Assembly (NCBI GenBank): GCA_943788175.1 | Contig: CALSPG010000005.1 | Coordinates: 352,001 to 416,000 of the forward strand | Direction: 5' to 3' | Origin: an uncultured bacterium | GTDB taxonomy: Bacteria; Fidelibacterota; Marinisomatia; Marinisomatales; UBA1611 | Length of the DNA stretch: 64,000 nt | In this document: positions 40,113 through 57,979 of the stretch, one piece after another | Layout: each line of letters opens with the position of its first letter | Numbering within the stretch: position 1 is the first letter of the stretch | The notes under the pieces: model-generated | What the model saw: the letters and a program-made list of their open reading frames with translations, nothing else | What the model was told of the DNA's origin: nothing | The model's database searches: none | Translations under genes and position numbers: made by a program

Positions 40113-40997
40113 ATGGATGATATAAAAACAGATCAACAAAAGAAGAGCGAAAATAGCAGGATATATGTCCTATTTTACTCTTTCTTTTTAATACCTTTTA
40201 TGATAGCTGTTTTTGGAGCGGTATTTTTCTTGCTATTCAAATTTGTTACTTACGAAACAAACGATGTTGAAAAATTATTAAACCAAGTAAAAATTGGATC
40301 TGCATCTAAGAGGTGGCAGTCCGCATTTGAGCTTGCTAAGGTTTTAAATAATCCTGATAAAGATCCACTCTCTGCTTCTTTTAAGGATCAGCTTTCTTCG
40401 GCTTACACAAGATCTATTCACGACGATCCGCTAGTTAGGTCTTATTTAGCAATGGCCATGGGAGCGACGCAAGATACGATATTTGGACAGGATTTGATAT
40501 TGGGATTAAAGGATGAAAGCATTGAAACGAGAATCGCGGCGGTTCAAGCGCTGGGTATGATTCAGTATGCTCCTGCCGTTGATCCTATTAATAAATTAAT
40601 TCAATCTACAGATACTGAAACTGAAAGGTTGTCAGCTACAATATCGTTAGGTATGATTGGAGATAGTAAGGCGATTCCCTTCTTGGAAGTTTTGCTTGAG
40701 GATGAGGAGGCAAATATTCGATGGGATGCCGCAATCGCTCTAGCTAAAATGGGGAATAATAGCGGCGCTTATATAATTGAAGGTCTCTTAGACAGAGAGT
40801 ATTTAAATAAATTTAGTCAGATTGATCCTATTGAGCAGAAAAAAGTTCTAATGGTTGCAATAAAAACAGCTTCTATTTTGTTTGATAAAAGGTTCGAAGA
40901 TGATTTAATTTCATTATCTAAAAATGATGCAGATCTCAAAATTAGAGATGCTGCAATTAAAGCTTTGAAAAATAATTATAGTAATGGAACCAATTAA
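40113..40997 (+). CDS. Membrane-anchored HEAT-repeat protein
   Basis: N-terminal TM; repeats RWQSAFEL, RIAAVQALG, IRWDAAIALAKMG, IRDAAIKAL. Confidence 0.85.
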   Translation: MDDIKTDQQKKSENSRIYVLFYSFFLIPFMIAVFGAVFFLLFKFVTYETNDVEKLLNQVKIGSASKRWQSAFELAKVLNNPDKDPLSASFKDQLSSAYTRSIHDDPLVRSYLAMAMGATQDTIFGQDLILGLKDESIETRIAAVQALGMIQYAPAVDPINKLIQSTDTETERLSATISLGMIGDSKAIPFLEVLLEDEEANIRWDAAIALAKMGNNSGAYIIEGLLDREYLNKFSQIDPIEQKKVLMVAIKTASILFDKRFEDDLISLSKNDADLKIRDAAIKALKNNYSNGTN

Positions 40998-40999
40998 TT

Positions 41000-41554
41000 A
41001 TGAGTGAGCCTAAAAATAATATTGCACCTAGGGCAGCCGTAGGCGCTGTGAGTAAGGGTCGTAAGACAACAATGGAAAGGCGTAGCTTTTTTAGCTGGCT
41101 TGCTGTTGGCTGGATAGGTTTTGCGGGAGTTACTGGAGGGTTTTTTACAATTATTCTTCGCTATCTCTATCCAAATGTGCTTTTTGAGCCGCCTCAATCT
41201 TTTAAAATAGGATTTGCAGATAAGTTTGCTCCAAACTCCGTAGACATAAGTTATAAAAAAGAGTTTAACGCTTGGATTGTTAGAGATGATGAATCAATCT
41301 TTGCGCTCTCTACAGTATGTACTCATCTAGGTTGCACGCCAAATTGGTTGGCTACTGATAATAAATTTAAATGCCCCTGTCATGGAAGTGGCTTTAGAAT
41401 GACTGGAATACATTTTGAAGGTCCAGCTCCACGTCCTCTTGAGAGGTTTAAAATAGGGGTTGCTGATGATGGTCAAATTCTTGTTGATAAAACTAAAAGT
41501 TATAAATGGGAAAAAGGTGAATGGGAGAATAAAGATTCTTTCTTAAAGGTTTAG
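41000..41554 (+). CDS. Rieske [2Fe-2S] subunit of a Rieske/cytochrome b complex
   Basis: Tat-like RRSFF plus TM; CTHLGC and CPCHGS; GPAPRPL. Confidence 0.95.
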   Translation: MSEPKNNIAPRAAVGAVSKGRKTTMERRSFFSWLAVGWIGFAGVTGGFFTIILRYLYPNVLFEPPQSFKIGFADKFAPNSVDISYKKEFNAWIVRDDESIFALSTVCTHLGCTPNWLATDNKFKCPCHGSGFRMTGIHFEGPAPRPLERFKIGVADDGQILVDKTKSYKWEKGEWENKDSFLKV

Positions 41555-41556
41555 AA

Positions 41557-42348
41557 ATGAGCGATAAAAACGACAAATCATTATTAGAAAAAATGGAAGA
41601 GTCCCAGGTTTGGAAGTCCATCATAAGATCTGGTATTCCTCGAACAAGAAGGCAACGTATGCACGCAATTCTTGGCAGCGTTTTCCTTCACTTGCATCCT
41701 GCCCGCTTGCCCAAGCATGCTGTTAAAGTTGGGTATACCTGGTGCATGGGTGGATTATCTTTCTTCCTTTTTGTTAATCTAACAATTACCGGCATATTGC
41801 TTATGTTTTATTATCGGCCCACAGTAGAATATGCATTCACTGATATAATTGATTTATCCGAGCAAGTTCCATTAGGTATAATGAGAGAACTGCACCGCTG
41901 GGCAGCTCATTCAATGGTTTTAATTGTGTGGCTTCACATGGTAAGAGTATTTATGACTGGTTCTTACAAGCCTCCTAGAGAATTTAATTGGGGTATTGGT
42001 GTTATTTTAATGGTACTAACGATGTTACTCTCATTTACAGGCTATTTACTTCCATGGGATCAATTAGCAATTTGGGCTGTAACTGTTGGTTCAAATATGG
42101 CGAGAGCAACCCCTTTTCTTGGTAATGAAGGTCCTGGTGCTGCTCTTCTAGCAATCGGTGATATTAATTTAATTCATGTAGGTTCAGATGTGAGGTTCGC
42201 ACTGCTGGGTGGCCGTTTTGTTGGAGAAGCAACTCTCTTGAGATTCTATGTTCTTCATTGTATAGCAATCCCCTTCGTTGCGATGATTTTTATGGCTGTT
42301 CATTTTTGGAGGATTAGAAAAGATGGAGGTATCTCTGGTCCTTTGTAA
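41557..42348 (+). CDS. Cytochrome b, N-terminal (b6-like) subunit
   Basis: WCMGG, ELHRWAAH...WLHM, GYLLPWDQ, RFYVLH...VHF..IRKDGGISGPL. Confidence 0.95.
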   Translation: MSDKNDKSLLEKMEESQVWKSIIRSGIPRTRRQRMHAILGSVFLHLHPARLPKHAVKVGYTWCMGGLSFFLFVNLTITGILLMFYYRPTVEYAFTDIIDLSEQVPLGIMRELHRWAAHSMVLIVWLHMVRVFMTGSYKPPREFNWGIGVILMVLTMLLSFTGYLLPWDQLAIWAVTVGSNMARATPFLGNEGPGAALLAIGDINLIHVGSDVRFALLGGRFVGEATLLRFYVLHCIAIPFVAMIFMAVHFWRIRKDGGISGPL

Positions 42349-42372
42349 AAGGTTTTTGAGTTTTTAGATACA

Positions 42373-43494
42373 ATGAACATAACCGCATTAAAATCATTAA
42401 TTGATGCCCTTTCTGCACCGACAATTAGTTTTACAATATTAACCGTAATATTTCCTTTTATTTTTCCGCCATCAGACTGGTTTGAAAAAATTCATAGAAA
42501 GTCAGGGTTGTGGAGAATCTGGACAAAGTTAGGTGGCGTTATAGGAATGATTCTAATCACTGCATTTTTTGTGATTGGTTATTTTGATCCATATTTTAAT
42601 AAGACTTTAACGAAAGCCGATAACTTCCCAATAGTTTTAATGATTTATTCAATGTGGTTTTACATATGGTTAGGTATGTTTAAAGCTTACAGGAATGATA
42701 TTAGGTTAGATCAAGGCCTCAAGCCGAATGAATATAATGACCCTGATGACAAAGTGTTGGTTTGGCCTGACTTAGTTTATATCGAGTTTATTGCTTTAAT
42801 ATTATTTCAAGTTTTTTTGATCGTCTGGTCTATAATAGTAGCTGCTCCAATTGAAGAACCTGCTAACCCTGCTGCTACTCCGAATCCTTCAAAAGCGCCA
42901 TGGTACTTTTTAGGTTTGCAAGAAATGTTAGTTTACTATGATCCATGGATTGCAGGTGTCTTACTTCCAACATTCATTATTGTGGGATTAATGGCAATAC
43001 CTTACGTTGACATTAATAAGAAAGGTGATGGTTATTACTCTTTTAGAGAAAGAAGGGTAGGGATGTTTATTTTTATGTATGGCTGGGTTGTATTGTGGCT
43101 ATTCCTTATCATCATTGGAACTTTCTTCAGAGGTCCAAATTGGAACTTCTTTGGGCCATTTGAATATTGGGATATCCATAAAGTAGAAGCGCTAACTAAT
43201 GTGAATCTATCTGAACTATTGTGGGTGAAATGGTTTAATCAGGGACTCCCATCGAATATTCTTATCAGAGAAGGTCTGGGTTTTGTAATTACTGGGTTGT
43301 ACTTATTTATTTTACCTGTTGTATTAGCAAAGACGTATTTAAAAGATATGTACGCAGCTTATGGCCCTACCAGGTTTGTAACTATAATGATGCTGGGGCT
43401 CGTTATGCTTGCGCTACCAATTAAAATGTATCTGCGTTGGGTTTTTAATCTCCAATATATAATCGCCATACCAGAATGGTTTTTTAATATTTAA
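42373..43494 (+). CDS. Cytochrome b subunit IV-like protein with extra TM helices
   Basis: VWPDL, PANPAATPNPSKAPWYFLGLQE, IPYVD. Confidence 0.88.
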   Translation: MNITALKSLIDALSAPTISFTILTVIFPFIFPPSDWFEKIHRKSGLWRIWTKLGGVIGMILITAFFVIGYFDPYFNKTLTKADNFPIVLMIYSMWFYIWLGMFKAYRNDIRLDQGLKPNEYNDPDDKVLVWPDLVYIEFIALILFQVFLIVWSIIVAAPIEEPANPAATPNPSKAPWYFLGLQEMLVYYDPWIAGVLLPTFIIVGLMAIPYVDINKKGDGYYSFRERRVGMFIFMYGWVVLWLFLIIIGTFFRGPNWNFFGPFEYWDIHKVEALTNVNLSELLWVKWFNQGLPSNILIREGLGFVITGLYLFILPVVLAKTYLKDMYAAYGPTRFVTIMMLGLVMLALPIKMYLRWVFNLQYIIAIPEWFFNI

Positions 43495-43509
43495 TGTTGA
43501 GTATAGAAA

Positions 43510-46491
43510 ATGTTTAAGAACGACGAACGATATTGGGACATTAATTTATTAAATAAATGGTTTGCCATCTCATCCCTAGTTTTCCTTGCTGTAATTGTTT
43601 GGATGTTTATCGACGATAATGACGATGAATTCAAAGAATATCAAAAGGAGTTTAGAAAACTACAAGTTGATATTACCAAAAGTAAATTAGAAGAAGAACA
43701 GTCTCTAGTTGAGGGTAAAGCCGAAGAGTTTGAAGCAGCACTAGCTGAAGCTGTAAAAATATTTGATCAAAAGTCTGAAAAAGTAAAAAATATAAATAGT
43801 GAATTAGGCGAGCTTAGAGCAGGATTCTATAATACCAATCTTACTTATTCTGCGAAAAAAGCGAAGCTAGATGTCTTAAAATTTGAATTAGAGAGTGCTA
43901 ATCTTAAAAGTGGCAATGAAGCTGATGAAATAAGACAAAACTATGAACAAAAATTAGCTTCTTTTGATGAAATCAAACTAAATAAAGAGCAATATGAGCT
44001 TGACATTGCAGCTCTAGAAACACAACTCAAAGGCCTTAAAGCTGATATTAAGTCTGCTCAAAGTGATAGAGATAAAGTGCTTAAGCAGGTTGATCTTGCG
44101 CAAAATAAACTTTCGCTGTTAGACCGGTCGGAAATGTCATTCATGAATAAGTTGGGGGACATCGTAAGAGATCTTCCTATTTTAGATTTTATGGATCCTT
44201 ATTATAAAGTAAAGCAAACGGTTGTAAAAGACGTATTATATGACGTTAACTTTACTGCCATGCCTGCTGTAGACCGCTGTACTAGTTGTCATTTAGGTAT
44301 AGCAAACCCTGATTTTAAAGACGCTGAGCAGCCTTACACAACACATCCTGACTTAGATCTATATTTGACCAGCAAATCACCGCATCCTGAAGAGTCGTTT
44401 GGTTGTACATCATGCCATTCAGGTAGAAGTAGAGGTACATCATTTATTTCATCAGCTCATACGCCAAATACTCCTCAACAGAAAAAGGAGTGGAAAGATA
44501 AGTATCATTGGAAACCCGTAAAGCATTGGTTGCAACCAATGTTACCAACTAGATACACTCAAGCTAGTTGTTTTAAGTGTCACCAAAATACAAGCGATTT
44601 AGCTGGTGCAGAAAAAATTAACTTAGGGCTTACACTGATCGATCGATCGGGTTGTAACGGTTGTCATGTTTCGGGCAACTGGGAGGCAAAGGGAAAATCG
44701 GGGCCAGATTTAAGAAAATTACATGAAAAGTCTCATCCTGAGTGGGTATCAAAATGGATTAAAAATCCGCGTAGCTTTAGATATAATACTCGTATGCCTC
44801 ATATTTTTGAGCAAGCAAATCAAGAAAAACCTAACATTGCTAAACGTAACATAACTGAAATAGCTTCAATTACTCATTATTTATTTGAAGATAAAGAAGT
44901 GAAAAAATCCATGAATCCCTCAAAGTATTTAGGGAATCCTGCTAATGGTCAAAATTTATTTTCTGCCATTGGATGTATGGGTTGTCATGTTAAAGAACAA
45001 GACCCTTCTCTTGCTCCGTCTCCTTCTACATTTAAAGAGCTTACAAAGCTTCAAGGCCCAAATCTGATTGGGATGGGTTCAAAAGTCACACCAGAATGGT
45101 TATTTAATTGGCTTAAAAAACCTCATGAATATATGCCATCTACAAGAATGCCAGACTTACGTTTGAGTGACAGTGATGCTAGAGACATTACTGCTTACCT
45201 TTATGATAATAAAAATTATGATTTTGACCAATTAGATGCTCCAGTGGCAAATGATGAGGTGCTCGATGAGCTTACTTTAGATTGGTTGATGAAAATGAAT
45301 CCTGAAAAATACGCGATTGAAAAAGCATCAAAGATGAGTAAAAATGATAAAATGTCATTTGTTGGTGAAAAAAGCATTAGACATTATGGTTGTTATGGCT
45401 GTCATAATATAGATGGTTTTATGGATGCGAAGCCCATCGGTGTTGAAATAACGCAAGAAGGTTCCAAACCTGTGGATAAATTTGATTTTGGCCTTTATCA
45501 TGATATACCCCACACTATCCATGATTGGATTGAAAACAAATTACGCACTCCTAGAATATATGATCGAGGTAAAGAGAGTGGGCCTCTAGATTTATTAAGG
45601 ATGCCTAATTTCCATTTTTCAGAAGAAGAGATTGAAGCAGTTACTATGGCAGTACTTTCTTTTAACACTGACAAAGTTGGAGAACCCTTATTAGCTCATA
45701 AAAAAGTACCTGAAAGCAATAAAGAAGGTCATCGATTAGTTAAAAAGTATAATTGCCAAGGATGTCACCTAATTGAAAATAGAGGAGGGCAACTAGTTGA
45801 GCAGATTGGCTCTCCTGAATATGGGCCTCCAAACTTGCATTCTCAAGGTAGAAAAACAAATCCTAATTGGTTGATTAAATTTTTTAATAATCCAATGACT
45901 GTCAGGCCTAATCTCCAAGTTAGGATGCCTAGCTTTCATCAAATTGATGATCAAGAATGGGATACTATCATTAAATACTTTCAGAGCATTGACGACGAAA
46001 ATACTGGTTATAGAGCACCGCATCAATATGCAGAGAGCAGTAGCTAAATTTAAAGCGGGTGAAAAAGTTCATGAGATAGGTGCTTGTAACAACTGTCACT
46101 TCTATGGCACAGAAATTTCCGACACAAGTTGCTTCGACTTGGGCTCCTAATCTTGCTCTTACAAAAGAGCGTCTTAACCCAGAATGGGTTGTTGATTGGC
46201 TTAGAAACCCTCAAGAAATTATGCCTGGGACAAAAATGCCGGCTCCTTATCTTACCTACTCCTGATGTTCTTGAAACCAGTGATGCTATAGATGTTTGGG
46301 GCAAAGACCTTGTTAAACTTAAAGGAAACCAAGAAGCTATGCTTGAAGGTCTTAGAGATTACATGTGGAATATCAAAGGCAAAGCAGATATTAGTGATGA
46401 GGTAAAAGATTACTTTGATGAAAATGGTTATGACTTTTCAGATGGAAACGATGAAGAAGATGATGAAGACTGGGGCGATGATGATTGGTAA
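43510..46491 (+). CDS. Membrane-anchored multiheme cytochrome c (8 CxxCH), broken by three +1 insertions near the 3' end (about 992 aa if corrected)
   Basis: CTSCH x2, CFKCH, CNGCH, CMGCH, CYGCH, CQGCH in the main ORF plus CNNCH in the 45944 fragment; fragments join at about 46045, 46115 and 46254. Confidence 0.88.
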
Positions 46492-46496
46492 AATAA

Positions 46497-47342
46497 TTAT
46501 TTCATAAATTTTACATAATTATTTAATTCTTTTCCTACCTCGCCAGCTAACCATTCATCACCTTTCCAAACTTTAAGAGTTTTCTGTCTGGTCCAATTAA
46601 TACGGATCTTAAGATTGTGTCCAATGTTGTTTTCTTCTATACCCCAGTATGAAGCTCCCACCTCAGAGGTTAGAGTATATAAATCGCTAGTGTTTTTTAC
46701 GCTAGACCATACCATCCAATTAGGATAATCCTTTATTATGTTTCCATAATATGAATCGAGTATTGTCTGGTGTGTCATAAATATAGTCAAAACTAACCAT
46801 GATAAATTTCAGCTTACTAGAATCTTTGAATTTTCGAGCTAATACACCATTTTTTATTACGACTGCTGGGCACATATTTGGAACAGGACATCTTTGTAAA
46901 AATAAATGAAATAAAAATATAATTATCTCTGAATTGATTTAAACTGGTTAAATCTCCTTTAGTATCGATAAAGTTAACTTCGCTCAATTTTGGCCAATTT
47001 CTTTTTGTTGGTATTCATCTTCATCCCAAAATTCGTCTTCTTCAAATGTTAAAGAACTCTTTCCGAGTTTCTTAAAATTTTCTGCATAACTAGTTCTTTC
47101 TGTTATAATAAAGTCAAAACTGATGCTATCATGTTTTGTTATATTTTTTAAAATAGTTTTGTTTTTAATTTTGAATGGCATGACCATTGGCATCATAAAT
47201 CCACTGATAGAATCGTGGTCTACTAAAATTGACTTTGCATTTTCATCTATATCGAGCACAACACCTGTGACTTCATATACTTTATATGCTTCTGAGCATG
47301 AGAAAAGTAATGGAATAAATAAGTATATAATTTTTTTTTCAT
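46497..47342 (-). pseudogene. CusF-like copper-binding domain/SCO fusion lipoprotein with about six indels (errors or decay; about 281 aa if corrected)
   Basis: Reconstructed MKKKIIYLFIPLLFSC...VDHDSISGFMMPMVMPF...FIFTRCPVPNMCP...SFDYIYDTP...GHNLRSVLIGPD..KVWKGDEW. Confidence 0.8.
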
Positions 47343-47343
47343 T

Positions 47344-47375
47344 AAAAAAAAAGGCGAACTAATTGTTCGCCTTTT
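47344..47375 (-). terminator. Intrinsic terminator after the cupredoxin gene
   Basis: AAAAAAAAAAGGCGAAC-TAATT-GTTCGCCTTTT; gives a T10 tract on the minus strand. Confidence 0.8.
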
Positions 47376-47394
47376 AGATTCTATCAGTAGATAT

Positions 47395-48102
47395 TTATTT
47401 TTTCTTAGGTCTTGAAAAAGTAAAGTCTTTTGTTACCGAACCAGATCCAACCGTAACCTTGTCTACAATAGCTTTTTTCTTAAATTTTTCTTGCCAACAG
47501 ACTACTTCGTACGTTCCTGCTGGTACATTCTTAATTTGATAATTACCGTTTTTATCTGTGACTGAGTAATATGGATGATCAGAAACTAAGACCCAAGTTT
47601 TCATCCATGGATGAACATCACATTTAATGTAGAATGGATCTTCGGACTTATCAAATTTTGCTTTCTTCTGTTTTACAACTTTTGGCATAGCGAAGTTGAA
47701 CTCTTTATTTTTTTTCGGTATTGAGTGAATGTTATGTAATGTGGCATCACTGTTTTTGATAAGTAATTCTTGGCCTGCTTGTATTCCAAAAACATGTGGA
47801 GTATAAACACATCCTTTTTGGTCTAGCTCTACAACTTCTTTAGGTATGCTACCATTGTATTTAACATTTCTAAGGTATACAATGCTTTCAGCTAGTTCTC
47901 CATTTGAATTGACCTTGAAACTTTCAGAAAATACTTTGCCTGAATGTGAAGAACCACAAACTGGATCAGCATCCATTCGAAGAGGTCTTTTTTTTGGTGG
48001 TTTCCCATCATATTTAACTTTACCAACTATATCTCCGGCATTTGCATCTATCATAAAACAAAAAAGTATGAGAAATGTTAGTATACTTTTGAATATATTC
48101 AT
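47395..48102 (-). CDS. Exported, Lys-rich cupredoxin-domain protein (type-1 Cu ligands) within a carboxypeptidase-regulatory-like beta-sandwich
   Basis: Signal peptide; HNIH and CDVHPWM (amicyanin-like C-x2-H-x2-M); TDKNGNYQIKNVPAGTYEV. Confidence 0.8.
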   Translation of the reverse strand: MNIFKSILTFLILFCFMIDANAGDIVGKVKYDGKPPKKRPLRMDADPVCGSSHSGKVFSESFKVNSNGELAESIVYLRNVKYNGSIPKEVVELDQKGCVYTPHVFGIQAGQELLIKNSDATLHNIHSIPKKNKEFNFAMPKVVKQKKAKFDKSEDPFYIKCDVHPWMKTWVLVSDHPYYSVTDKNGNYQIKNVPAGTYEVVCWQEKFKKKAIVDKVTVGSGSVTKDFTFSRPKKK

Positions 48103-48226
48103 GTTAAGAATTCCTTTTATTGCGTTAATTATGTATATAATCTATTACAAACTAGATAATGACTTCAATACTATTAACGCTATTGCAGAACATATCAATA
48201 CTTATTGATTTTTGAGGTTTTAGATT

Positions 48227-48724
48227 ATGTATTCTTTTATGATTATATGTTATTTGCTGATGGTAATTAATTTTGTTGCTATCACTGTTTGTGGTTTAAT
48301 GGGTATCTATGACATGTCATTTTTTGGAGCCAACCATGCTCAGTTTGGGCTTCTTGCAATTTTATTATTTGTATTTACTGAAACTATTGTCATGTATTTT
48401 TTTATTGCGACAGCAAAAAGTATAAAAAATATTTTAATAGAAAGTAATAGTTCAATGTCTGAAGAGCTCTGGAGCCGAATTAAAAATATTAAAAATATTA
48501 TTTTTCCTCAAACAATGCTGACAATTACATTAATTGGATCATTGTACATCTTCTATTTTGGATATGTATCCTCGAATTCAAACAATTCTGATTTTGCATA
48601 TTCTTGGATTTCTCTACCTTTTTTTATTTTATGTTACTTTCATCATCTCTGGACCCTTAAGGTGAAAAATGATTCTTTTAAAATGCAAGTTGGCGTCATC
48701 AAGGATTTACCAAATAACTCTTAA
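48227..48724 (+). CDS. Hypothetical four-TM membrane protein
   Basis: Four hydrophobic segments; His at the edges of TMs. Confidence 0.7.
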   Translation: MYSFMIICYLLMVINFVAITVCGLMGIYDMSFFGANHAQFGLLAILLFVFTETIVMYFFIATAKSIKNILIESNSSMSEELWSRIKNIKNIIFPQTMLTITLIGSLYIFYFGYVSSNSNNSDFAYSWISLPFFILCYFHHLWTLKVKNDSFKMQVGVIKDLPNNS

Positions 48725-48728
48725 AAAA

Positions 48729-48887
48729 ATGTATTACATGGCAAAATCACTTCAACTCCTTGGCATTTTTTCTATACCTATTGGAGTGGTAGTTAAATAC
48801 CCTAAATTAATGGACCCTAAACTGTTGTTGGCGGCTGTAATTATATTTGGCTCGGGAATGGCTATTGAAAAATATTTACTTAAATAA
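48729..48887 (+). CDS. Small two-TM membrane protein
   Basis: MAKSLQLLGIFSIPIGVVV...LLLAAVIIFGSGMAIEKYLLK; start at 48729 or 48738. Confidence 0.6.
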   Translation: MYYMAKSLQLLGIFSIPIGVVVKYPKLMDPKLLLAAVIIFGSGMAIEKYLLK

Positions 48888-48955
48888 GTAATTATTTTAT
48901 GTGATTTTTTTGCCGTAGGGTGATAAATTTACTTCAGATAATAATTGTAATATAC

Positions 48956-49279
48956 ATGGCTAAATATAATCACTTAAAAGGTATTCCTGAGTTACCTGAC
49001 TCTCCGAACATTAAAAAGAAGAGGCCTAAATCTGTAGCTGTCGTTGATGAAGACAATTGCACGGGCTGCCAGGCATGCGTTCCGTTCTGTCCAGTAGATT
49101 GTATTGAATCAGTTCCAAAAGAAAAGTATGGTATACCTATTCCACCCGTTCAAATACGATTTGACGAGTGTATTGGTTGTGTTGTTTGTGCTAGGGTTTG
49201 TACGAAAATGACCTGGGATGCAATAAGAATGATTGATACAGATACTTTTGAAGATTTGTACGGAATGAAAATAAATTAA
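48956..49279 (+). CDS. 2x[4Fe-4S] ferredoxin
   Basis: CTGCQACVPFCP and CIGCVVCARVC; probable start ATG 48956. Confidence 0.9.
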   Translation: MAKYNHLKGIPELPDSPNIKKKRPKSVAVVDEDNCTGCQACVPFCPVDCIESVPKEKYGIPIPPVQIRFDECIGCVVCARVCTKMTWDAIRMIDTDTFEDLYGMKIN

Positions 49280-49302
49280 ATCAAAGTTATCGGAGCAATA
49301 AA

Positions 49303-51024
49303 TTGTATTCAAATTCTAATAATCACGATCATCATGAAGAAAATTTCATTCAGAAATATATATTTTCTGTTGACCACAAAGTAATAGGTATACAGTATGG
49401 TATAACTTCTTTATTATTTTTATTGTTTGGTTTTTCACTGATGGCAATAATGCGCTGGCAGTTAGCTTATCCCGGAACAGAAATTCCTATTGTCGGTTTT
49501 ATTTTTGGCGAGGGTGGTGTTTTAGCATCTGAACAGTACAACTCTCTTGGTGCTATGCATGGTACTATTATGATTTTTCTTGGAATTGTTCCACTAGCAG
49601 TTGGAGCATTTGGTAATTATTTAGTTCCTCTTCAAATCGGTGCTATTGATATGGCCTTCCCCAAATTAAATGCTGCTAGTTACTGGACATATTTTGTTGG
49701 TGGCGTGATCATGATTTCTAGCTTTTTTATGCCTGAAGGAGCCGCAAGATCTGGTTGGACTTCTTATCCACCACTTTCTGTCTTTGAAAATGGTCAAACA
49801 ATATGGCTTATCTCAATGATTTTTCTAATAACCTCATCTTTATTGGGGTCAATGAATATTATTGTTACAATTGTTCAGTTGAGAGTACCAGGTTTAACTT
49901 GGATGCGTCTTCCTCTTTTTACCTGGGCGCAGTTTGTAACCTCTTTTCTTTTAGTTCTTGCTTTTCCACCTTTAGAGGCTGCGGCAGTATTGCAATTAAT
50001 GGATCGAGTAGCAGGTACAAGTTTCTTTCTCCCGAGTGGTTTGGTTATGTCTGGTGAAATAGTTGATGTCGCGGGCGGCGGATCTCCATTGCTCTGGCAA
50101 CATTTATTTTGGTTTTTAGCACACCCAGAGGTTTATGTTTTAATATTACCGGCACTTGGTATTGTTGGCGAAATACTTGCCAATAATACAAGAAAGCCAA
50201 TTTGGGGTTTTAAGTCTATTGTATACTCAATGGTTTTCCTCGGCTTTTGTTCTTTTATCGTTTGGGCGCATCATATGTTTTTAACAGGTATGGGACAGGC
50301 AATGAGTGCATTTTTTCAAACCACTACTATGATAATTTCAATACCTTCTGTAGTTATTCTTACTTCCTATTTTTTATCCCTATGGGGAGGGTCAATTCGA
50401 TTTAATACTCCGATGCTATTTGCTCTAGCATTTTTGCCTATGTTTGGTATAGGTGGTCTTACTGGATTACCGCTTGGACTAGCTGCTAGTGATATTTATC
50501 TTCATGACACATATTACGTAATTGGTCACTTCCACTATGTTGTTGCCCCTGGAACTATTTTTGCTTTATTTGCGGGAATATATTATTGGTTTCCAAAGAT
50601 TACTGGAAAGCGAATGAGTGAAACTTTAGGCAAACTACACTTTTGGCCATCGTTAATATTTATGAACGGAATTTTTATGCCGATGTTCATACAAGGCCTT
50701 GCTGGTGTTTCACGAAGATTAGCCGATGGTGGTGTGTCTTATGCACATGCAAGTGGAGTATTGCAATGGAATGAGTTTATGTCTATCTCTGCTTTTTGTC
50801 TAGGACTATCCCAGATTCCATTTATTGTTAATATCTTTATGTCATTATTTACTGGAGTCAAATCAGATAGAAACCCTTGGAAGTCAACTACAATTGAATG
50901 GGCTGCGCCATCTCCACCATTAGCGCATGTTAATTTTGACTCTGAAATCACTGTTCATCGAACTGCTTACGAATACAGTGTACCTGGAGCTAAAGAGGAT
51001 TTCATTCCTCAAACAGAAAGTTAG
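49303..51024 (+). CDS. ctaD: Cytochrome c oxidase subunit I, A1 type (TTG start)
   Basis: DHKVIG, MHGTIMIF, WFLAHPEVY, WAHHM, HDTYYVIGHFHY. Confidence 0.97.
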   Translation: MYSNSNNHDHHEENFIQKYIFSVDHKVIGIQYGITSLLFLLFGFSLMAIMRWQLAYPGTEIPIVGFIFGEGGVLASEQYNSLGAMHGTIMIFLGIVPLAVGAFGNYLVPLQIGAIDMAFPKLNAASYWTYFVGGVIMISSFFMPEGAARSGWTSYPPLSVFENGQTIWLISMIFLITSSLLGSMNIIVTIVQLRVPGLTWMRLPLFTWAQFVTSFLLVLAFPPLEAAAVLQLMDRVAGTSFFLPSGLVMSGEIVDVAGGGSPLLWQHLFWFLAHPEVYVLILPALGIVGEILANNTRKPIWGFKSIVYSMVFLGFCSFIVWAHHMFLTGMGQAMSAFFQTTTMIISIPSVVILTSYFLSLWGGSIRFNTPMLFALAFLPMFGIGGLTGLPLGLAASDIYLHDTYYVIGHFHYVVAPGTIFALFAGIYYWFPKITGKRMSETLGKLHFWPSLIFMNGIFMPMFIQGLAGVSRRLADGGVSYAHASGVLQWNEFMSISAFCLGLSQIPFIVNIFMSLFTGVKSDRNPWKSTTIEWAAPSPPLAHVNFDSEITVHRTAYEYSVPGAKEDFIPQTES

Positions 51025-51030
51025 ATTAAA

Positions 51031-51630
51031 ATGGAAATACCTTACGTAGTAGAAGAACGAGAAGACACTGGTCTCATTAACTCAAAATTAGGCATCTGGA
51101 TTTTTTTAGCCTCAGAGGTTATGTTATTTGGTGGTTTATTCTCTGCTTATATTTTTTTACGGATGGCTGCACTTCCAGGTGATTTTGAGCGATGGGCAAG
51201 TGAACTTAGTGTGCCGATGGCTACTGTTAATACTGTGGTTTTAATATCCTCTAGTGTATCAATGGTAATGGCTTGGGCTTCATTAAAAATGAAAGATTTT
51301 TCAAAGTATAAAATGTACTTAGGCATTACAATTTTTTGCTCTTTTGTTTTTTTAACCATTAAATATTTTGAATATTCAGGAAAATTTGCTCATGATATCT
51401 ACCCGTCGAGTAATACCTTCATGGCAATATATTTTACTCTTACTGGTTTACACGTGCTACACATTATTGGTGGCGTAGTAGTCATGCTTTATTTCTACCT
51501 TCCAATAAGTCATAAAATGTGGAATCAACAACCAGAACAATTCACGAATAGAATAGAAGTTTTTGGCTTATATTGGCATTTTGTTGATCTGGTCTGGATT
51601 TTCTTATTCCCTGTATTATATTTACTGTAA
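51031..51630 (+). CDS. ctaE: Cytochrome c oxidase subunit III
   Basis: WIFLASEVMLFGGLF, TGLHVLH, LYWHFVDLVWIFLFP. Confidence 0.95.
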   Translation: MEIPYVVEEREDTGLINSKLGIWIFLASEVMLFGGLFSAYIFLRMAALPGDFERWASELSVPMATVNTVVLISSSVSMVMAWASLKMKDFSKYKMYLGITIFCSFVFLTIKYFEYSGKFAHDIYPSSNTFMAIYFTLTGLHVLHIIGGVVVMLYFYLPISHKMWNQQPEQFTNRIEVFGLYWHFVDLVWIFLFPVLYLL

Positions 51631-51640
51631 GGATTGAATT

Positions 51641-51970
51641 ATGAGTGATAATCACGATACAGCATCAATGCAAGATCATATTAGAGTTTATCTAATGGTT
51701 TTTGGAGCGCTTGGTGTTTTAACAATAGTTACTGTTTTAGCATCATACTTAACCTTAAGTACTTCTGAAGCAATATTTCTTGCTCTCATAATAGCTTCTG
51801 TAAAAGCGTCGTTAGTTTTAGGTTACTTTATGCACCTTATTACTGAAAGAAAAATGATTATTTGGATTCTTCTAATGACAGTATTTTTCTTTTTTATTAT
51901 GATATTTTTGCCTCTAATCTCTAATATTGATCATGCTGGAGACCCAGCTCAATGGTGGAAGGTTCTTTAA
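51641..51970 (+). CDS. Cytochrome c oxidase subunit IV (prokaryotic)
   Basis: YLMVFGALGVLT, IASVKASLVLGYFMHL. Confidence 0.9.
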   Translation: MSDNHDTASMQDHIRVYLMVFGALGVLTIVTVLASYLTLSTSEAIFLALIIASVKASLVLGYFMHLITERKMIIWILLMTVFFFFIMIFLPLISNIDHAGDPAQWWKVL

Positions 51971-52168
51971 ATGATTGGGATTAAGACATTTCACCTTTTT
52001 TTTATAGGCTTATCTATACTTTTAACTGGGTGGTATAGTTATTTTGAAATAACAACACCAACAAATCCTGGAAACATTTCAACATTCCTTGGAATTGCTT
52101 CTTTATTATCAATGTTAGCATTAAGCTATTATGGATATAACGTTTACAATAAATTTAAAAAATTATAA
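51971..52168 (+). CDS. Small two-TM protein in the cox operon
   Basis: 65-aa ORF, KTFHLFFI; abuts its neighbours. Confidence 0.7.
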   Translation: MIGIKTFHLFFIGLSILLTGWYSYFEITTPTNPGNISTFLGIASLLSMLALSYYGYNVYNKFKKL

Positions 52169-52171
52169 ATA

Positions 52172-52396
52172 ATGCATTACTTTAAAATAATAATTGTTAT
52201 AATCGCTTTTTTTTCGAGTTCTCTGTATGCATGCGGGACGTGTTATGGTGATCCTAATTCTGCAGCCGTGGAGGGTATGAACTGGGCAATTATCTCCCTA
52301 CTCATTACAACTGGAGGAGTGATGTCGGGTATAAGTTTTTCTATTTTTAGTATTGCCAAAAAGTCAAAGAATTATAATAAATCTAAGGAATTTTAA
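52172..52396 (+). CDS. Small membrane protein with CxxC directly after a signal peptide
   Basis: SSLYA-CGTCYGDP then a TM and basic tail. Confidence 0.72.
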   Translation: MHYFKIIIVIIAFFSSSLYACGTCYGDPNSAAVEGMNWAIISLLITTGGVMSGISFSIFSIAKKSKNYNKSKEF

Positions 52397-52399
52397 GTT

Positions 52400-53242
52400 T
52401 TGCTAGAGTTTTTACAAAGTTTAGGTTTACCTCAAAACCTATCAATTCAGGGCGAATACATTGACAATGCAAATGTATTAATGCACTGGCTTATGTTATA
52501 TTTATTCCTAGGCTGGGGTGCATTTTTTATTGTCAGTCTTTACAAATTTCGTGAATCAAAAAATAAAAAAGCAGATTATTATGGAGTTAAATCACATCTT
52601 TCTTCTGTCCTAGAAGGGGCAGTAGCTATAGTGGAAATTATAGCCTTATTTGGATTTTCTTATCCAATATGGGCTTACAGGGTTAATGACGTTCCTGACA
52701 GTAGGGATGCTGTAAATATTAGAGTTATTGCTCAACAATTTGCATGGAATTTTCATTATCCAGGAGCTGATGGTGTTTTTGGAAGGACGGATATTAATTT
52801 AGTAGATGAGTCTGAACAAAATTTTATTGGTATTGATAGGTCAGATGCTTTTGCTAAAGATGATATTATTCTCCAGAATCAAATGCATATCCCCGTAAAT
52901 AAAAAAATTAGAGTGGACTTATCTTCAAAGGATGTTATTCACAACTTTAAACTTCCTGAGTTAAGAGTATCTCAAGATGCGATTCCAGGGATGACAATAC
53001 CTGTTCACTTTACCGCAAAAACTACGTCTAATGAATTCTTAGAAAGTGTTAAAGGAACTCCTCGAGAGGGCAAGGGACTTGAAATAGCTTGTGCTCAATT
53101 ATGTGGTATTACCCACTACAGGATGCGTGGATATTTAACAGTTGATACTGAAGAAGAATACAGTGATTGGCTTGCTAGTGAGGCTGAGTATTTAGATTTT
53201 GGTGACGATGAAGATGAGTGGGGTGATGATGAAGACTGGTAA
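52400..53242 (+). CDS. ctaC: Cytochrome c oxidase subunit II (CuA), no fused cyt c (TTG start)
   Basis: QQFAWNFHYPG, DVIH, DAIPG, CAQLCGITHYRM. Confidence 0.95.
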   Translation: MLEFLQSLGLPQNLSIQGEYIDNANVLMHWLMLYLFLGWGAFFIVSLYKFRESKNKKADYYGVKSHLSSVLEGAVAIVEIIALFGFSYPIWAYRVNDVPDSRDAVNIRVIAQQFAWNFHYPGADGVFGRTDINLVDESEQNFIGIDRSDAFAKDDIILQNQMHIPVNKKIRVDLSSKDVIHNFKLPELRVSQDAIPGMTIPVHFTAKTTSNEFLESVKGTPREGKGLEIACAQLCGITHYRMRGYLTVDTEEEYSDWLASEAEYLDFGDDEDEWGDDEDW

Positions 53243-53410: not shown

Positions 53411-56400
53411 TTATAATTTTTTTACTAGACCTCCAAAGCTCTGATCAATTTTAAACCCTTGCTTGTAAAAAAAACTTTCATGGTAAAAACCAACTGTTAT
53501 TATACTGTGGCCATTTTGAATCATTCTATTAAAGAAATCATTCATTAGTTTTTTACTCAAATTTCTTTGTTGATATTTATTCATTATAACAACCCATTCA
53601 AGATGTACTCTTAAATTGCTTTTAATTATATAATAAAGGCCACCAATCACTTTGTTTCTACTATTTACTAAAAATAAAAAATTGTGGTTCACATTAAATG
53701 TCACAGAAAGATTTTCTTTTGATATAATCGTTTGAAATTTGGCAATTTCTTTTGGTTGAAAGGGTGGGCGAATTGTATAAATATTACCTTCAGAATCCTC
53801 TGTTTTAAATGCTAGGTCTATATTTTTTTTATCACCTTTTCTTATTTTTGCTAGCTCCACATAATCAGCTGCATCTATATGAGGATAAAGCATTCTTGCT
53901 AAGAAAAATTTCTCATTTTCTTTCAATTTAGTGTTTAATAAAATATCTTCAATTTTATCTTTTAGATTCCATGGGCTTAAAGAATCTCGTCTCATATCTT
54001 TAATAATAGATTGAAAATAGGTATTTAAGCGGTCTCCCGAATTTTTTAAACAAGTCATCATGAAAAACCTTACTCTTGTTTCGGGGTATTCATCTAATAA
54101 TGTATTTAAGTTGTAATCATGATACAACTCTTTTAAAATTGATGCTTTTGCCTCATTTGTTGCGTTCCTGTTTAAATCAAGCCATCTTTCATATCTTAAA
54201 GAAGCAAAAACAACTGGTTTCGTTAGAACTCCAAAATTATTAAAATCAGTTAAAAAATTAGTTATTCTACTTTCTGTGAGTCCAAATTTTGAAAATTTAT
54301 TTTTAACTTCTTTTGTCGATAAATCATCTCTAAGCCTCTTAAGTATTGGGATGCCTTTTTTTACTTTCATTGCTTCTAAAGTAGCAGTAAATATAAGTTC
54401 CCAGTCTGCCATATGCTTTAAGCCAGGGTATCTTTTTTCCGTATCTAGAATATAATGTATGTAGAGGTCCAAATAAAATTGCCAAATAGAATCAACTTCT
54501 TTTCTATCAGATATAGATATAATCTTATTCCCCGTGTTATAATCATGTGGGGGTATTATTAAATTGTCTGGTATAGGAGGGTATATTGCTAGCTTATATT
54601 GCGTGCGATGCCAAAAATCAATATAGGCTTGGGCCCCATTCCATATATAATGAAGCCAACGCATTTGCCAGCGATCTTTCTTTGAATTAGAACTTATTTC
54701 TTCTTTAAATCTATTTAGCTGAACATTTACAGTATCATTTGTTATATATTCTTCAGTATAAATCGATTCTTCAGGCCAGTATCCACCAAATTTTTCTACT
54801 AATTGATTTAAACTTGAACTTGTTGAGCCCATCAGAATTAACCATTGTATTTCTTCTTCAAAAAAATCTTTTTCTAAATTCTGATTAAGATTTAAAACAA
54901 TATTATATGTTCCGTAACTAATCGTTTTTACAAGAACTCGGAATGAGCTTTTATGATTATTTGTGGTTAAGTGTTTTATCCAAACCCCATTTCTTGGAAT
55001 GTCAGAAAGTTGAAGTATTGTGTCATTTGAAAATAAGAAAATTGATTCTTTAATTAGAGCCGTTGAACTTATTGCTTTTAGTAAAACTATTTTATGGTTA
55101 TTGCTCACACTATCATCGAATGTTAAAACATCACTCCAAGTATATTCTTCTTTTGTATCTCTATCTATAGTTATAGATGAATTAGGTCCTATCCATAGTC
55201 TGAATCCATTTATTAAATTATAATATTCTTTCTGAGCTGACGATTGAACTTGAGATGGTGATTCGGATAGTTGCCACCAGATAAGTTCTGATCTAGCTAA
55301 AATAAACTGAGTCGGGTGAATTTTTCCATATTCGCAGATGATTGATAATGCTTTTTGAATGAAATTCATATCAACTGTGTCTATTTCATCAATTTTGCTA
55401 TGTATAATTTTGAGGAGATTAATTAGTTCATGAAATTGCTTACTATTTATTTTTTTAATATCAAAAATAAAGTCATCTTCTTTATTAACCATATGGTATC
55501 TATGAATGGCTTTTAATTGATCTACAAAAAACCTTTCAGATAATAAAGGGCATATAGTCTCTAATAATTTTAATCTAAAAATTGGCTTTGGATGCTCCAA
55601 GTATTGCATAAAAGTTTCAACGATGACGTCAGACCATTCATTGTTTTTAATTTTTATGATTTCATTAAGGTGGCTACTAAACGAAATATTATTATTACGA
55701 TATAGTAATAATGATTTATGAATCATAGATAATTGTAGATCATTTTCTTTAAAAGTAATTTTTTGCTCAATGTCATAAAAATTTTTACTATCAATAACCA
55801 ATGTGATCTCATTATAATTTATTGATTCTTTTATTCTAAATGTTGTGTTTGCACAGAAAACAATAAACTCTTGATTGCCGAGCCATAGTCTTGGTGTGTT
55901 TATAAACATAGCTAAATCAAATGTTTGCTTATCTATATCATAAGATAGTTCACCAATATGAACTTTATTTTCGTACCATCGAAATGTTAGCATTATATTT
56001 TTATCAGCAATAATAATTTCATTTCCATTCCATTTTATATTTGATTTGATGGTCCCTATCTCTCGGATAAGCCAATTTGGAAATTTTATTTCTTTATCGT
56101 CATTGTATAAACTGACATAGTCTTTTTTATACATTGATTCTATTTCTAAATCAAAATTTTGTAAAATATTTTTACGTTTATAAGTTCCTTTTTGCGTTAA
56201 TTCATTACTTTCATTGCTGAAGTCTCTATTGATTATTGTAAAATTAACAATTCGTTCAAATGGAGATAAAAAACCGTTTATTGATATCAGCATAGCACTA
56301 AAAATATTTTGTACTTGCTTTTCATTCATATTTTGAAGGTTAAAATCAATGTTTTCTTTATTCGGATATATAAGCACTGTATTATATTCCTTTCCATCAC

Positions 56401-57979
56401 CGACAAGGAACACAGATTTTACAAGATCAAAATCTTGGAATAAATTTTCTATTTTTTGAGGAGCTATTGTTTGTCCTCTACTATTCTTGTATATATCTTT
56501 TTTCCGATCAATTATAAAATAATAACCATTTTCTTCTTTAAAAATATCACCGCTATAGAACCATCCATTTTTAAAAGATTTTGAGTCATCATCTTTATAA
56601 AATCCCTTAGATATATATGGTCCTTTCATACAAAGTTCACCATCTTCTTCAATTTTTAGATTAATACCAGGAAGAGCTTTCCCAACAGTATCTTCAACAT
56701 ATTCGTTTGGCGGAGTCATGGTTATTCCGCCTGTAGCTTCTGTCATCCCATAACCGCTCATTAAATTAATTTTGTTATCGTGAAAAAATATAAAAATATC
56801 AGGGTCTAAATAACCCGCGGCAGAAAGTCCCCATTTTAAACTGCCTCCTGTAATATCTTTTAATTTGGTATTGATTTCTTCTTTGTTTGATAAATCTAAA
56901 TCTATTGAACTATTCATTAATTCATATATCTGCACCCATCTTTTTGGTATACTTATAAAGATAGTAGGAGATATTATTTTAAAATCTTTTAATAACGAAT
57001 TAAACGATGGGGATTGAGCAAAAGTATAGGTAGCTCCCCAAAATATTGAACCCATAAGCTCAAAATACCTTCCAAAAGTATGAAAAAGAGGTAAGTAACA
57101 TAAAAACTTATCTTTGTTACTTATGTCAGGTAACGCTAATGCTCTTGAAAATCTTTTAGAAATAATATTTAATTGTGAAAATTTTACACCCTTTGGGTTA
57201 CTTGTAGATCCAGATGTGTACATAATGGTAATAGTTGAATTCATATCCTGATCAGATAATTCATTTATATCATCATATTTTTGATACTGGGAAAATTTAT
57301 CATGGAATGCTTCCCAGGAAATTGAATTGCTTTGTAATGAACCAATATCGTTAACATCAATAACTATTAGTTCTTCATCATATTTTGTTGAATTCCATAA
57401 TTGAATTGCTCTTTCACCACCAAGGAATAAATGCGTGATATTTGCTTCTTTTATTATAAATATAAGGTGGTCTTTATTGGCATTAAGTGGGATAGGAATG
57501 ATACTTATACCTGATGATAAACATGCTAAATCTACAACCGCGCTTTTATATTGATTATGTGATAGTATACCGATTGTTGCTTTTTGATTATTAGATGCTT
57601 TTTTTATTGCCAGAGATGTCTTTAAAACATCGTTCCAAAGCTTGGAGTATGTAATGTCTATTTTATTATCACCGTCAATAGTATGAATTGCTACTTTATC
57701 CCTATATCTTTTTTCTCGTTGTAATAGTAATTGTCCAGTATGGAAATTATACTTTTCAATAACCTGGGCAATTTTCATAGCCCATTGATTAGTATCATGA
57801 GATGAAATAGTTTTTGAGATTGACGATAAATGCAGTAGGTCTAAAAATGAAAAAGCATCATTTTTAGAAACATCATTATTAAGAATATAGTCTAGGGTTT
57901 CTTCAAGATATTCATATCGAACATTCCCAGTTTCAAAGCTTTTTAGCAGGTTGGTAATTTTATGTTTAATTTCAGTCAC
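53411..57979 (-). CDS. 1522-aa fusion: long-chain acyl-CoA ligase-like domain, unknown and kinase-like middle region, C-terminal GNAT-like domain
   Basis: MYTSGSTSNPKG, LPLFH, GYGMTE, GWFYSGD, IDRKKD; C-terminal VHLEWVVIMNKYQQRNLSKKLM...FFYKQGF. Confidence 0.85.
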   Translation of the reverse strand: MTEIKHKITNLLKSFETGNVRYEYLEETLDYILNNDVSKNDAFSFLDLLHLSSISKTISSHDTNQWAMKIAQVIEKYNFHTGQLLLQREKRYRDKVAIHTIDGDNKIDITYSKLWNDVLKTSLAIKKASNNQKATIGILSHNQYKSAVVDLACLSSGISIIPIPLNANKDHLIFIIKEANITHLFLGGERAIQLWNSTKYDEELIVIDVNDIGSLQSNSISWEAFHDKFSQYQKYDDINELSDQDMNSTITIMYTSGSTSNPKGVKFSQLNIISKRFSRALALPDISNKDKFLCYLPLFHTFGRYFELMGSIFWGATYTFAQSPSFNSLLKDFKIISPTIFISIPKRWVQIYELMNSSIDLDLSNKEEINTKLKDITGGSLKWGLSAAGYLDPDIFIFFHDNKINLMSGYGMTEATGGITMTPPNEYVEDTVGKALPGINLKIEEDGELCMKGPYISKGFYKDDDSKSFKNGWFYSGDIFKEENGYYFIIDRKKDIYKNSRGQTIAPQKIENLFQDFDLVKSVFLVGDGKEYNTVLIYPNKENIDFNLQNMNEKQVQNIFSAMLISINGFLSPFERIVNFTIINRDFSNESNELTQKGTYKRKNILQNFDLEIESMYKKDYVSLYNDDKEIKFPNWLIREIGTIKSNIKWNGNEIIIADKNIMLTFRWYENKVHIGELSYDIDKQTFDLAMFINTPRLWLGNQEFIVFCANTTFRIKESINYNEITLVIDSKNFYDIEQKITFKENDLQLSMIHKSLLLYRNNNISFSSHLNEIIKIKNNEWSDVIVETFMQYLEHPKPIFRLKLLETICPLLSERFFVDQLKAIHRYHMVNKEDDFIFDIKKINSKQFHELINLLKIIHSKIDEIDTVDMNFIQKALSIICEYGKIHPTQFILARSELIWWQLSESPSQVQSSAQKEYYNLINGFRLWIGPNSSITIDRDTKEEYTWSDVLTFDDSVSNNHKIVLLKAISSTALIKESIFLFSNDTILQLSDIPRNGVWIKHLTTNNHKSSFRVLVKTISYGTYNIVLNLNQNLEKDFFEEEIQWLILMGSTSSSLNQLVEKFGGYWPEESIYTEEYITNDTVNVQLNRFKEEISSNSKKDRWQMRWLHYIWNGAQAYIDFWHRTQYKLAIYPPIPDNLIIPPHDYNTGNKIISISDRKEVDSIWQFYLDLYIHYILDTEKRYPGLKHMADWELIFTATLEAMKVKKGIPILKRLRDDLSTKEVKNKFSKFGLTESRITNFLTDFNNFGVLTKPVVFASLRYERWLDLNRNATNEAKASILKELYHDYNLNTLLDEYPETRVRFFMMTCLKNSGDRLNTYFQSIIKDMRRDSLSPWNLKDKIEDILLNTKLKENEKFFLARMLYPHIDAADYVELAKIRKGDKKNIDLAFKTEDSEGNIYTIRPPFQPKEIAKFQTIISKENLSVTFNVNHNFLFLVNSRNKVIGGLYYIIKSNLRVHLEWVVIMNKYQQRNLSKKLMNDFFNRMIQNGHSIITVGFYHESFFYKQGFKIDQSFGGLVKKL

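Follow-up and report, generated by a model that had tools for sequence, protein, structure and literature searches.

Paired acidic, tryptophan-ended tails on an octahaem cytochrome c and on CoxB of Marinimicrobia, with a cupredoxin as their candidate partner

Introduction

It may be asked how, in the Marinimicrobia, which are abundant uncultured bacteria of the ocean, electrons pass from complex III to the oxidase in the absence of a small cytochrome c. This question is raised in a particular form by a respiratory gene cluster in one of their genomes (GenBank assembly GCA_943788175.1, here G000; 2.27 Mb, 92% complete), in which two unrelated subunits, a multihaem cytochrome c and CoxB, the CuA subunit of the oxidase, end in nearly the same acidic tail, with a cupredoxin encoded between them. 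The cluster lies in a stretch of 64,000 nucleotides, positions 352001-416000 of contig CALSPG010000005.1 (G000:C5), which is referred to here as the window. A preliminary description of the window proposed that the tails are docking peptides that capture the cupredoxin as an electron shuttle between the two complexes, with a possible further use in copper loading. Here the conservation of the tails, the specificity of their motif and the nature of the cupredoxin are considered in turn, and the proposal is then weighed against its alternatives. Positions are those of the window unless a locus (L) or another contig is named; other genomes carry G numbers and families f numbers.

The two tails and their conservation

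Both the cytochrome c and CoxB end in (D/E)n-W-G-D-D-(E)-D-W, and the near-identical tails first described are indeed present at the stops 46491 and 53242 (Table 1). A six-frame scan of the whole genome with the pattern [DE][DE]W.?[DE][DE], a check that the preliminary description had proposed, gave 11 matches, of which only the two tails lie three residues or fewer from a stop. Among the 1999 open reading frames (ORFs) of at least 100 aa in G000 there are ten with acidic C-termini, and CoxB alone among these ends in Trp, the ORF that carries the cytochrome c tail having fallen below the 100-aa length cut of this count.

Loss of the tails in orthologs had been named at the outset as a ground for abandoning the proposal, and the tails proved to be conserved. 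The acidic Trp tail of CoxB is found in 25 of the 26 closed orthologs of a first set, the exception having its Trp four residues from the end, and in 28/28 closed orthologs from a set of Marinimicrobia-like loci; the two sets overlap, and two open-ended ORFs were skipped in each. The cytochrome c tail is present in 23 of 31 Marinimicrobia rows, which were collected by neighbourhood and not by the tail, with one gene doubled among the eight tail-less rows. A possible bias in these figures is that tail residues were included in one of the six locus-search seeds and in the whole-protein CoxB ortholog query. In both proteins the Trp that closes the acidic run persists in orthologs with as little as about 40-55% identity. 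The two window tails differ at synonymous codon positions, and third positions vary across genomes. These synonymous differences rule out that one tail was recently copied from the other by duplication or gene conversion of the DNA, and indicate that both are maintained at the protein level. Some orthologs (L013, L038, L165 and L376) carry the unit in tandem copies, and tail length varies. Key residues conserved at a fixed terminal place in two unrelated proteins are what would be expected of a short linear motif.

None of 27 closed outgroup homologs of the cytochrome c has the tail, and at 50 CoxB loci from other phyla one acidic tail with W was found, together with 11 acidic tails with F or Y and 38 proteins with no tail. 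The deep family f22 is without the cytochrome c tail (3/3), any CoxB tail (7/7) and the basic cupredoxin end described below (3/3). On a quick tree of the cytochrome c (midpoint root, no bootstrap) two changes are needed, the simplest account being that the tail arose once, in the Marinimicrobia clade, and was lost once, in family f21. Other conserved tails were noticed on CoxB elsewhere. These are short tails peculiar to their lineages, of FEDDYY type in Binatia and Myxococcota and of KGFFD type in Spirochaetia, where they go together with strongly acidic cupredoxins of net charge -13 to -19; the loci concerned are L060, L066, L076, L078, L080 and L082 (CoxB C-termini) and L064, L065, L067 and L070.

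Specificity of the motif

The strict tail, searched for as a DNA pattern, gave 80 matches in 54 of the 251 genomes of the phylum, with no more than two per genome and none in the reversed control. Of these matches 47 distinct ones were examined (54 rows minus seven fetched twice) and 46 proved to be CoxB or cytochrome c. A strict-tail scan of JGI metagenomes found at least 122 loci, of which 119 gave a closed ORF; 114 of these 119 are CoxB or cytochrome c (108 via BLAST and six short fragments by eye), and the two proteins account for about 96% of the strict tails among the metagenome matches listed.

The motif was also relaxed to six residues. From 150 regions listed, 60 were picked by hand and 59 gave an ORF, comprising 8 CoxB, 2 trihaem cytochromes, 11 members of one membrane-protein family and 38 miscellaneous proteins. 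The membrane proteins are 200-230 aa long, start with MxNDxKSG and carry YAYPP followed by a long Asp/Glu tail; they gave no Pfam match. Many Marinimicrobia have a second aa3-type oxidase, whose CoxB paralog has a DDWGDDEDE-like stretch before a WGWxWKE end; the paralogs at L152, L154, L160, L390, L386 and L523 came from neighbourhood and profile searches and five more were reached via the motif. A trihaem cytochrome c just upstream of narG has the motif as an interdomain linker in three of four orthologs, and none was found at the other 26 loci, which encode dihaem or more distant homologs. In G205 there are two nar operons, the trihaem cytochrome accompanying one and a dihaem cytochrome the other. 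In G000 itself 15 ORFs contain acidic-Trp windows; two of them lie side by side and encode exported proteins with E..FW[SG]DDE stretches. Acidic N-terminal stretches with FW or W were also seen in exported proteins that belong to no known family, at L508:4053-4988 and 4985-5818 (+) (G000:C3) and at L509:2901-3359 (-).

The preliminary description also pointed to a related stretch in the linker of the CusF-SCO fusion encoded beside the cytochrome c. Such a stretch of similar composition is present, although it is internal, contains FW or FF and is not the terminal motif. It is acidic and aromatic in 10/10 orthologs seen, with Trp replaced by Phe in four of the ten, and belongs to a loose class common on unrelated exported proteins. 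Since this commonplace linker differs from the terminal tails, the suggested use of the tails in copper loading has found little support. Many tail-bearing loci, for example L043-L045, L050 and L059, are without CusF-SCO.

The cupredoxin

The protein encoded between the two tails has 38 K/R and 24 D/E, exactly as first counted by hand, and its mature part, encoded at 47398-48036 on the minus strand, has a pI of 9.5. An AlphaFold2 model built on 67 aligned rows reached a pLDDT of 96 and was used in place of a single-sequence prediction (pLDDT 36). In this model residues about 66-153 have the Greek-key fold of plastocyanin, amicyanin and pseudoazurin and match these proteins (for 1kdi, Z 11.8 and rmsd 1.5 A over 83 residues). 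The parts on either side build a sandwich like that of transthyretin and carboxypeptidase D (Z 11.1 to 1qmu and 10.9 to 5aq0). The ligand pattern His...Cys-x-His-x-Met is present as His101, Cys139, His142 and Met145 of the mature chain in 67/67 rows. Taken together, model and ligands identify the protein as a type-1 cupredoxin that is predicted to bind copper. Cys27 (64/67 rows) and Cys76 (67/67) probably form a disulfide. The protein scores 24.1 bits against the amicyanin family TIGR02657, under the curated cut-off of 110.2, and a sequence search of the PDB gave no significant relative (best E 0.08); its family is entered in databases as 'rhamnogalacturonan lyase domain' or 'plastocyanin'. 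The sandwich domain (model mc07d460325d8) also matches chain Y of 6hif (Z 9.4), which in the Kuenenia hydrazine dehydrogenase complex is a small protein of sandwich fold attached to the multihaem enzyme, although what is shared is the fold only.

One copy of the cupredoxin is present in G000. A Pfam search of this 92% complete genome for class I cytochrome c matched only the octahaem protein, in agreement with the preliminary description, which had found no small soluble cytochrome c in the cluster. The other exported haem candidates are two acidic proteins with a single CxxCH, one of them matching PSCyt1.

It is the basic C-terminus of the cupredoxin, and not its overall charge, that goes with the tail-bearing lineages. 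At least three K/R in seven residues are found there in 28 of 30 Marinimicrobia pairs compared with one of 35 pairs from other phyla. K/R are enriched in tail lineages at positions 12, 122, 124, 146, 209, 212 and 213, the figures for Marinimicrobia and others being 92% vs 6% at position 213, 90% vs 19% at 209 and 71% vs 6% at 124.

The gene cluster and its assembly

The cluster at 40113-53242 encodes a HEAT protein, a Rieske protein, a split cytochrome b, the multihaem cytochrome c, CusF-SCO, the cupredoxin, a ferredoxin, coxACD and coxB (Table 1). Upstream of it are haem A synthase (CtaA), a UbiA-family prenyltransferase (CtaB) and SCO genes. A Rieske protein and split cytochrome b with an adjoining eight-haem cytochrome c are together the make-up of the b6f-like complex type. 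The cytochrome c has an SMC-like coiled-coil stalk (residues about 41-211) and class I cytochrome c domains. CoxB has the CuA pattern C-x3-C-x3-H-x2-M with an upstream His (CAQLCGITHYRM), and H88, C138, C142, H146 and M149 are invariant across 64 rows; its score against TIGR02866 is 113.6 bits, below the cut-off of 147.7. CoxB has no CxxCH, so that the fused cytochrome c that defines caa3-type oxidases is lacking, as the preliminary description had it. Contigs from public RNA runs span parts of the cluster; they are no measure of transcription or its level.

Table 1. Features of the cluster and of other loci with related motifs. Window positions unless a locus or contig is named.
Feature	Position	Strand	Basis or remark
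HEAT-repeat protein, opens Rieske/cytochrome b operon	40113..40997	+	Pfam HEAT_2, 7e-30
Rieske [2Fe-2S] protein	41000..41554	+	Pfam Rieske
Cytochrome b6-like N-terminal half of split cytochrome b	41557..42348	+	Pfam Cytochrome_B
Subunit IV-like C-terminal half of cytochrome b	42373..43494	+	Pfam Cytochrom_B_C
Membrane-anchored octahaem cytochrome c	43510..46491	+	8 CxxCH in intact L031 ortholog, about 992 aa
Acidic Trp-ended cytochrome c tail, YDFSDGNDEEDDEDWGDDDW*	46429..46491 (stop ends 46491)	+	Sequence; kept in 23/31 Marinimicrobia rows
CusF-SCO fusion, putative copper delivery	46497..47342	-	Pfam CusF_Ec and SCO1-SenC on intact L031 ortholog
Acidic aromatic CusF-to-SCO linker, FEEDEFWDEDEY	47011..47046	-	Sequence
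Exported, predicted type-1 cupredoxin in transthyretin/carboxypeptidase-regulatory-like sandwich; end RPKKK	47395..48102	-	AlphaFold2 model, fold matches, ligands
2x[4Fe-4S] ferredoxin	48956..49279	+	Pfam Fer4
CoxA, haem-copper oxidase subunit I	49303..51024	+	Pfam COX1; best NCBIfam TIGR02891, under its cut-off
CoxC and CoxD, subunits III and IV	51031..51970	+	Pfam COX3, COX4_pro
CoxB, CuA subunit II, no fused cytochrome c	52400..53242	+	Pfam COX2; CAQLCGITHYRM motif; no CxxCH
Acidic Trp-ended CoxB tail, YLDFGDDEDEWGDDEDW*	53189..53242 (stop ends 53242)	+	Net -11 in final 18 residues
MxNDxKSG membrane-protein family	L191, L193-L194, L196-L200, L211, L213, L215; G000:C7:145239-145913		
Second-oxidase CoxB, examples	L152:18083-18880; L160:2762-3637; L390:9070-9930	-; -; +	
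Nar-linked trihaem cytochrome c, C-terminal hydrophobic anchor	L373:9857-11056; L374:1063-2307; L513:5159-6346	-; -; +	Directly upstream of narGH

In the window assembly the cytochrome c gene is split across ORFs, an 845-aa ORF stopping at 46047, with one-base insertions at about 46044, 46112 and 46250, and CusF-SCO is likewise broken by single-base indels. The indel cluster is limited to about 1.4 kb (46040-47400) and these two genes. At L031, whose ortholog has 93% DNA identity, the cytochrome c is intact with 992 aa and 8 CxxCH, and contigs from public runs are without the extra bases (all three in X1, X3 and X17; that at 46250 also in X15). For these reasons the frameshifts are single-base assembly errors, and true pseudogenes are ruled out as their cause.

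Two neighbouring genes may be mentioned. Just upstream of the HEAT/Rieske operon, 38143-39645 (+) encodes a 500-aa protein in which a repeat (about DGDNDPLNALSDKVTRGKAKAFLVKIKRG) occurs in three near-identical copies and a fourth, degenerate one, with no Pfam match above cut-off; L149, L150 and L159 have similar C-termini in the same genomic place. Adjoining coxB, 53411-57979 (-) encodes a 1522-aa AMP-binding enzyme fused to a C-terminal GNAT domain, and long ORFs near the oxidase at L152 and L154 have a C-terminus like that of this fusion.

A proposed role for the tails and its alternatives

From the operon type it may be suggested that the b6f-like Rieske/cytochrome b complex oxidises quinol and that electrons run down the octahaem cytochrome c, from which the soluble periplasmic cupredoxin would take them on to CuA of the aa3-type oxidase. 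The cupredoxin is put forward as the carrier because of its fold and ligand set, because no class I cytochrome c was found and because the genes are linked across phyla; on these grounds we regard it as likely that it shuttles electrons from the octahaem cytochrome c to CuA. In most Marinimicrobia both end-points of this chain have gained a flexible C-terminal Asp/Glu tail with one or two Trp, which may act as a capture tether. The acidic residues would attract a Lys/Arg cluster of the cupredoxin (RPKKK, K12, K122, K124 and K146) and the Trp would provide a hydrophobic or cation-pi anchor. We infer from the genomics alone that the tails dock the cupredoxin in this way, and that the two tethers would hold the carrier near both complexes despite the charge screening expected at seawater level. 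If the shuttle is granted, capture by charge and Trp anchoring is moderately probable; the joint reading, a copper shuttle with two capture tethers like the acidic QCR6 hinge of yeast complex III, falls a little short of an even chance. The tail would aid capture and be inessential, because other phyla have this chain with no tails.

Several observations weigh against this reading. The cupredoxin, which had been called very basic, is so in the window's genus (net charge +10 to +14) but not across the tail lineages, where 51 rows range from -12 to +14 and 11 are net negative. In family f21 the cytochrome c tail has been lost and the cupredoxin kept, mostly with its basic end. The tail and the basic end map to essentially one lineage, so that their covariation amounts to a single unreplicated contrast. 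A cupredoxin is present in 52 of the 54 strict-tail genomes, with no match in tail-bearing G065 (100% complete, 120 contigs) and G237 (85%), but it is also present in 50/50 outgroup genomes of the same CoxB clade, most of them without tails (38 of the 50 also have the multihaem cytochrome c). The co-occurrence of tails and cupredoxin that was proposed as a check is therefore non-discriminating, and with operon linkage also to be allowed for it was discounted as support for docking; what the presence of the cupredoxin across phyla does support is a widespread copper shuttle. A predicted complex of the CoxB soluble domain and tail with the cupredoxin scored 0.25 against a mark of 0.32, with unfolded controls, and counts neither for the reading nor against it. 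The expectation that the motif would not occur on many unrelated proteins held for the strict tail (114/119 of the matches listed), although this also ends one unknown lipoprotein among the genome matches examined and five unrelated proteins, one of them a TatT, among the metagenome matches listed. It did not hold for the relaxed motif, with 241 matches in 149/251 genomes compared with 21 in the control and 49 of the 59 inspected ORFs encoding non-respiratory-looking proteins. Furthermore, the motif is missing from NosZ in 3/3 genomes that have tails and cupredoxin and from Nar-linked dihaem cytochromes (3/3).

These last absences show that such a tag is not universal on periplasmic acceptors (a wider scan of NosZ gave 0/25 with the motif, none of these 25 genomes being in the strict-tail set), and they bear on a broader idea. 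In this, which we think unlikely, the Trp-capped acidic tail would be a modular address tag on the complex III cytochrome c, the two CoxB and the Nar-linked trihaem cytochrome, and the two-domain cupredoxin, reading the tag with its sandwich domain and Lys-rich end, would be passed between these complexes. If true, the tag would amount to a peptide-coded routing system for respiratory electrons.

A different partner for the tails may also be considered. They might tie complexes III and IV into a supercomplex or attach to a basic patch of some other membrane subunit, with the octahaem cytochrome c then feeding CuA directly and the cupredoxin having a side role. With its SMC-like stalk and class I domains the cytochrome c could reach the oxidase, and the tail-bearing genomes with no cupredoxin match, as well as the net acidic cupredoxins of some tail lineages, are consistent with such an arrangement. 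Two like-charged tails, however, cannot bind one another and so would need a third, basic partner; the HEAT protein, tried in that role, is a poor fit because it is net acidic like the tails (-9 past its N-terminal hydrophobic stretch). The cytochrome c and oxidase operons are moreover often unlinked, and the cupredoxin goes with the CoxB clade throughout the outgroup genomes. We regard a different partner of this kind as unlikely. The tails could instead have no single partner, being acidic low-complexity extensions in the style of the lineage (for solubility, spacing or salt adaptation, or arising by GAT/GAA slippage) that have converged in composition. The frequency of acidic-Trp stretches on unrelated exported proteins, the 15 ORFs of G000 included, agrees with this, as do the variable length and duplicated units of the tails and the loss in f21. 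Retention of the terminal Trp on two unrelated proteins at such low identity does not, nor does its restriction to CoxB among the ten acidic C-termini of G000 (with the length cut that left the cytochrome c ORF aside) or the near confinement of the strict form to two proteins among the metagenome matches listed, and we consider this explanation unlikely too. It is very unlikely that the tails bind a metal ion or are tags for biogenesis or quality control, recognised by a periplasmic protease or by a maturation factor for copper or haem. The neighbouring CusF-SCO with its conserved acidic aromatic linker, and the CtaA, CtaB and SCO genes of the cluster, might suggest such a function, but copper is not required by the cytochrome c, many loci that have the tails lack CusF-SCO, and the other cuproproteins and c-type cytochromes of these genomes have no tail.

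Comparison with known systems

The complexes and the idea of a copper carrier are already known. A b6f-like complex beside an octahaem cytochrome c has been described in Nitrospina gracilis, Ca. Kuenenia and Ca. Methylomirabilis, and cupredoxin-like proteins were suggested there as possible carriers to an oxidase or bc complex (PMC3578206); a plastocyanin carrier has been proposed in Caldithrix (PMC5317091). By description, the operon of the first three organisms shares with the window the Rieske protein, split cytochrome b and adjoining octahaem cytochrome c, and the part of that account available makes no mention of acidic tails (PMC3578206), which the outgroup cytochromes c examined here also lack (0/27). 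No description of the paired tails was found in the literature searched, subscription journals not being covered; the preliminary description had likewise known of none for the motif.

The cupredoxin resembles plastocyanin, amicyanin and pseudoazurin in its fold and in the His-Cys-His-Met ligand set of type-1 blue copper carriers (PMC11638306), and differs from them in being inserted in a transthyretin/carboxypeptidase-D-like sandwich. The finding names a candidate carrier, a two-domain cupredoxin mislabelled as a polysaccharide-lyase domain, that accompanies the oxidase clade in many phyla. The tails themselves recall the SSB-Ct, an acidic run with an aromatic cap at a free C-terminus, in which one tail serves many cytoplasmic partners. 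The acidic-aromatic C-termini are alike, although here they stand on two periplasmic proteins with one proposed partner.

The nearest working model for the tails, by analogy, is the QCR6 hinge. In yeast complex III this disordered acidic segment promotes binding and surface diffusion of redox carriers (PMC13031426). Like QCR6/UQCRH, the tails would be disordered, negatively charged stretches of a respiratory complex, guiding a soluble basic carrier on its way between III and IV. QCR6 is, however, a small acidic subunit of its own, belongs to complex III alone and has cytochrome c as its carrier (PMC13031426), whereas in the Marinimicrobia the segments are fused, Trp-ended C-terminal tails on donor and acceptor alike, with a copper protein as the candidate carrier. 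If the binding is as proposed, the tails would be the bacterial equivalent of the mitochondrial hinge in a doubly fused form, and might serve as a portable tether in the engineering of electron transfer.

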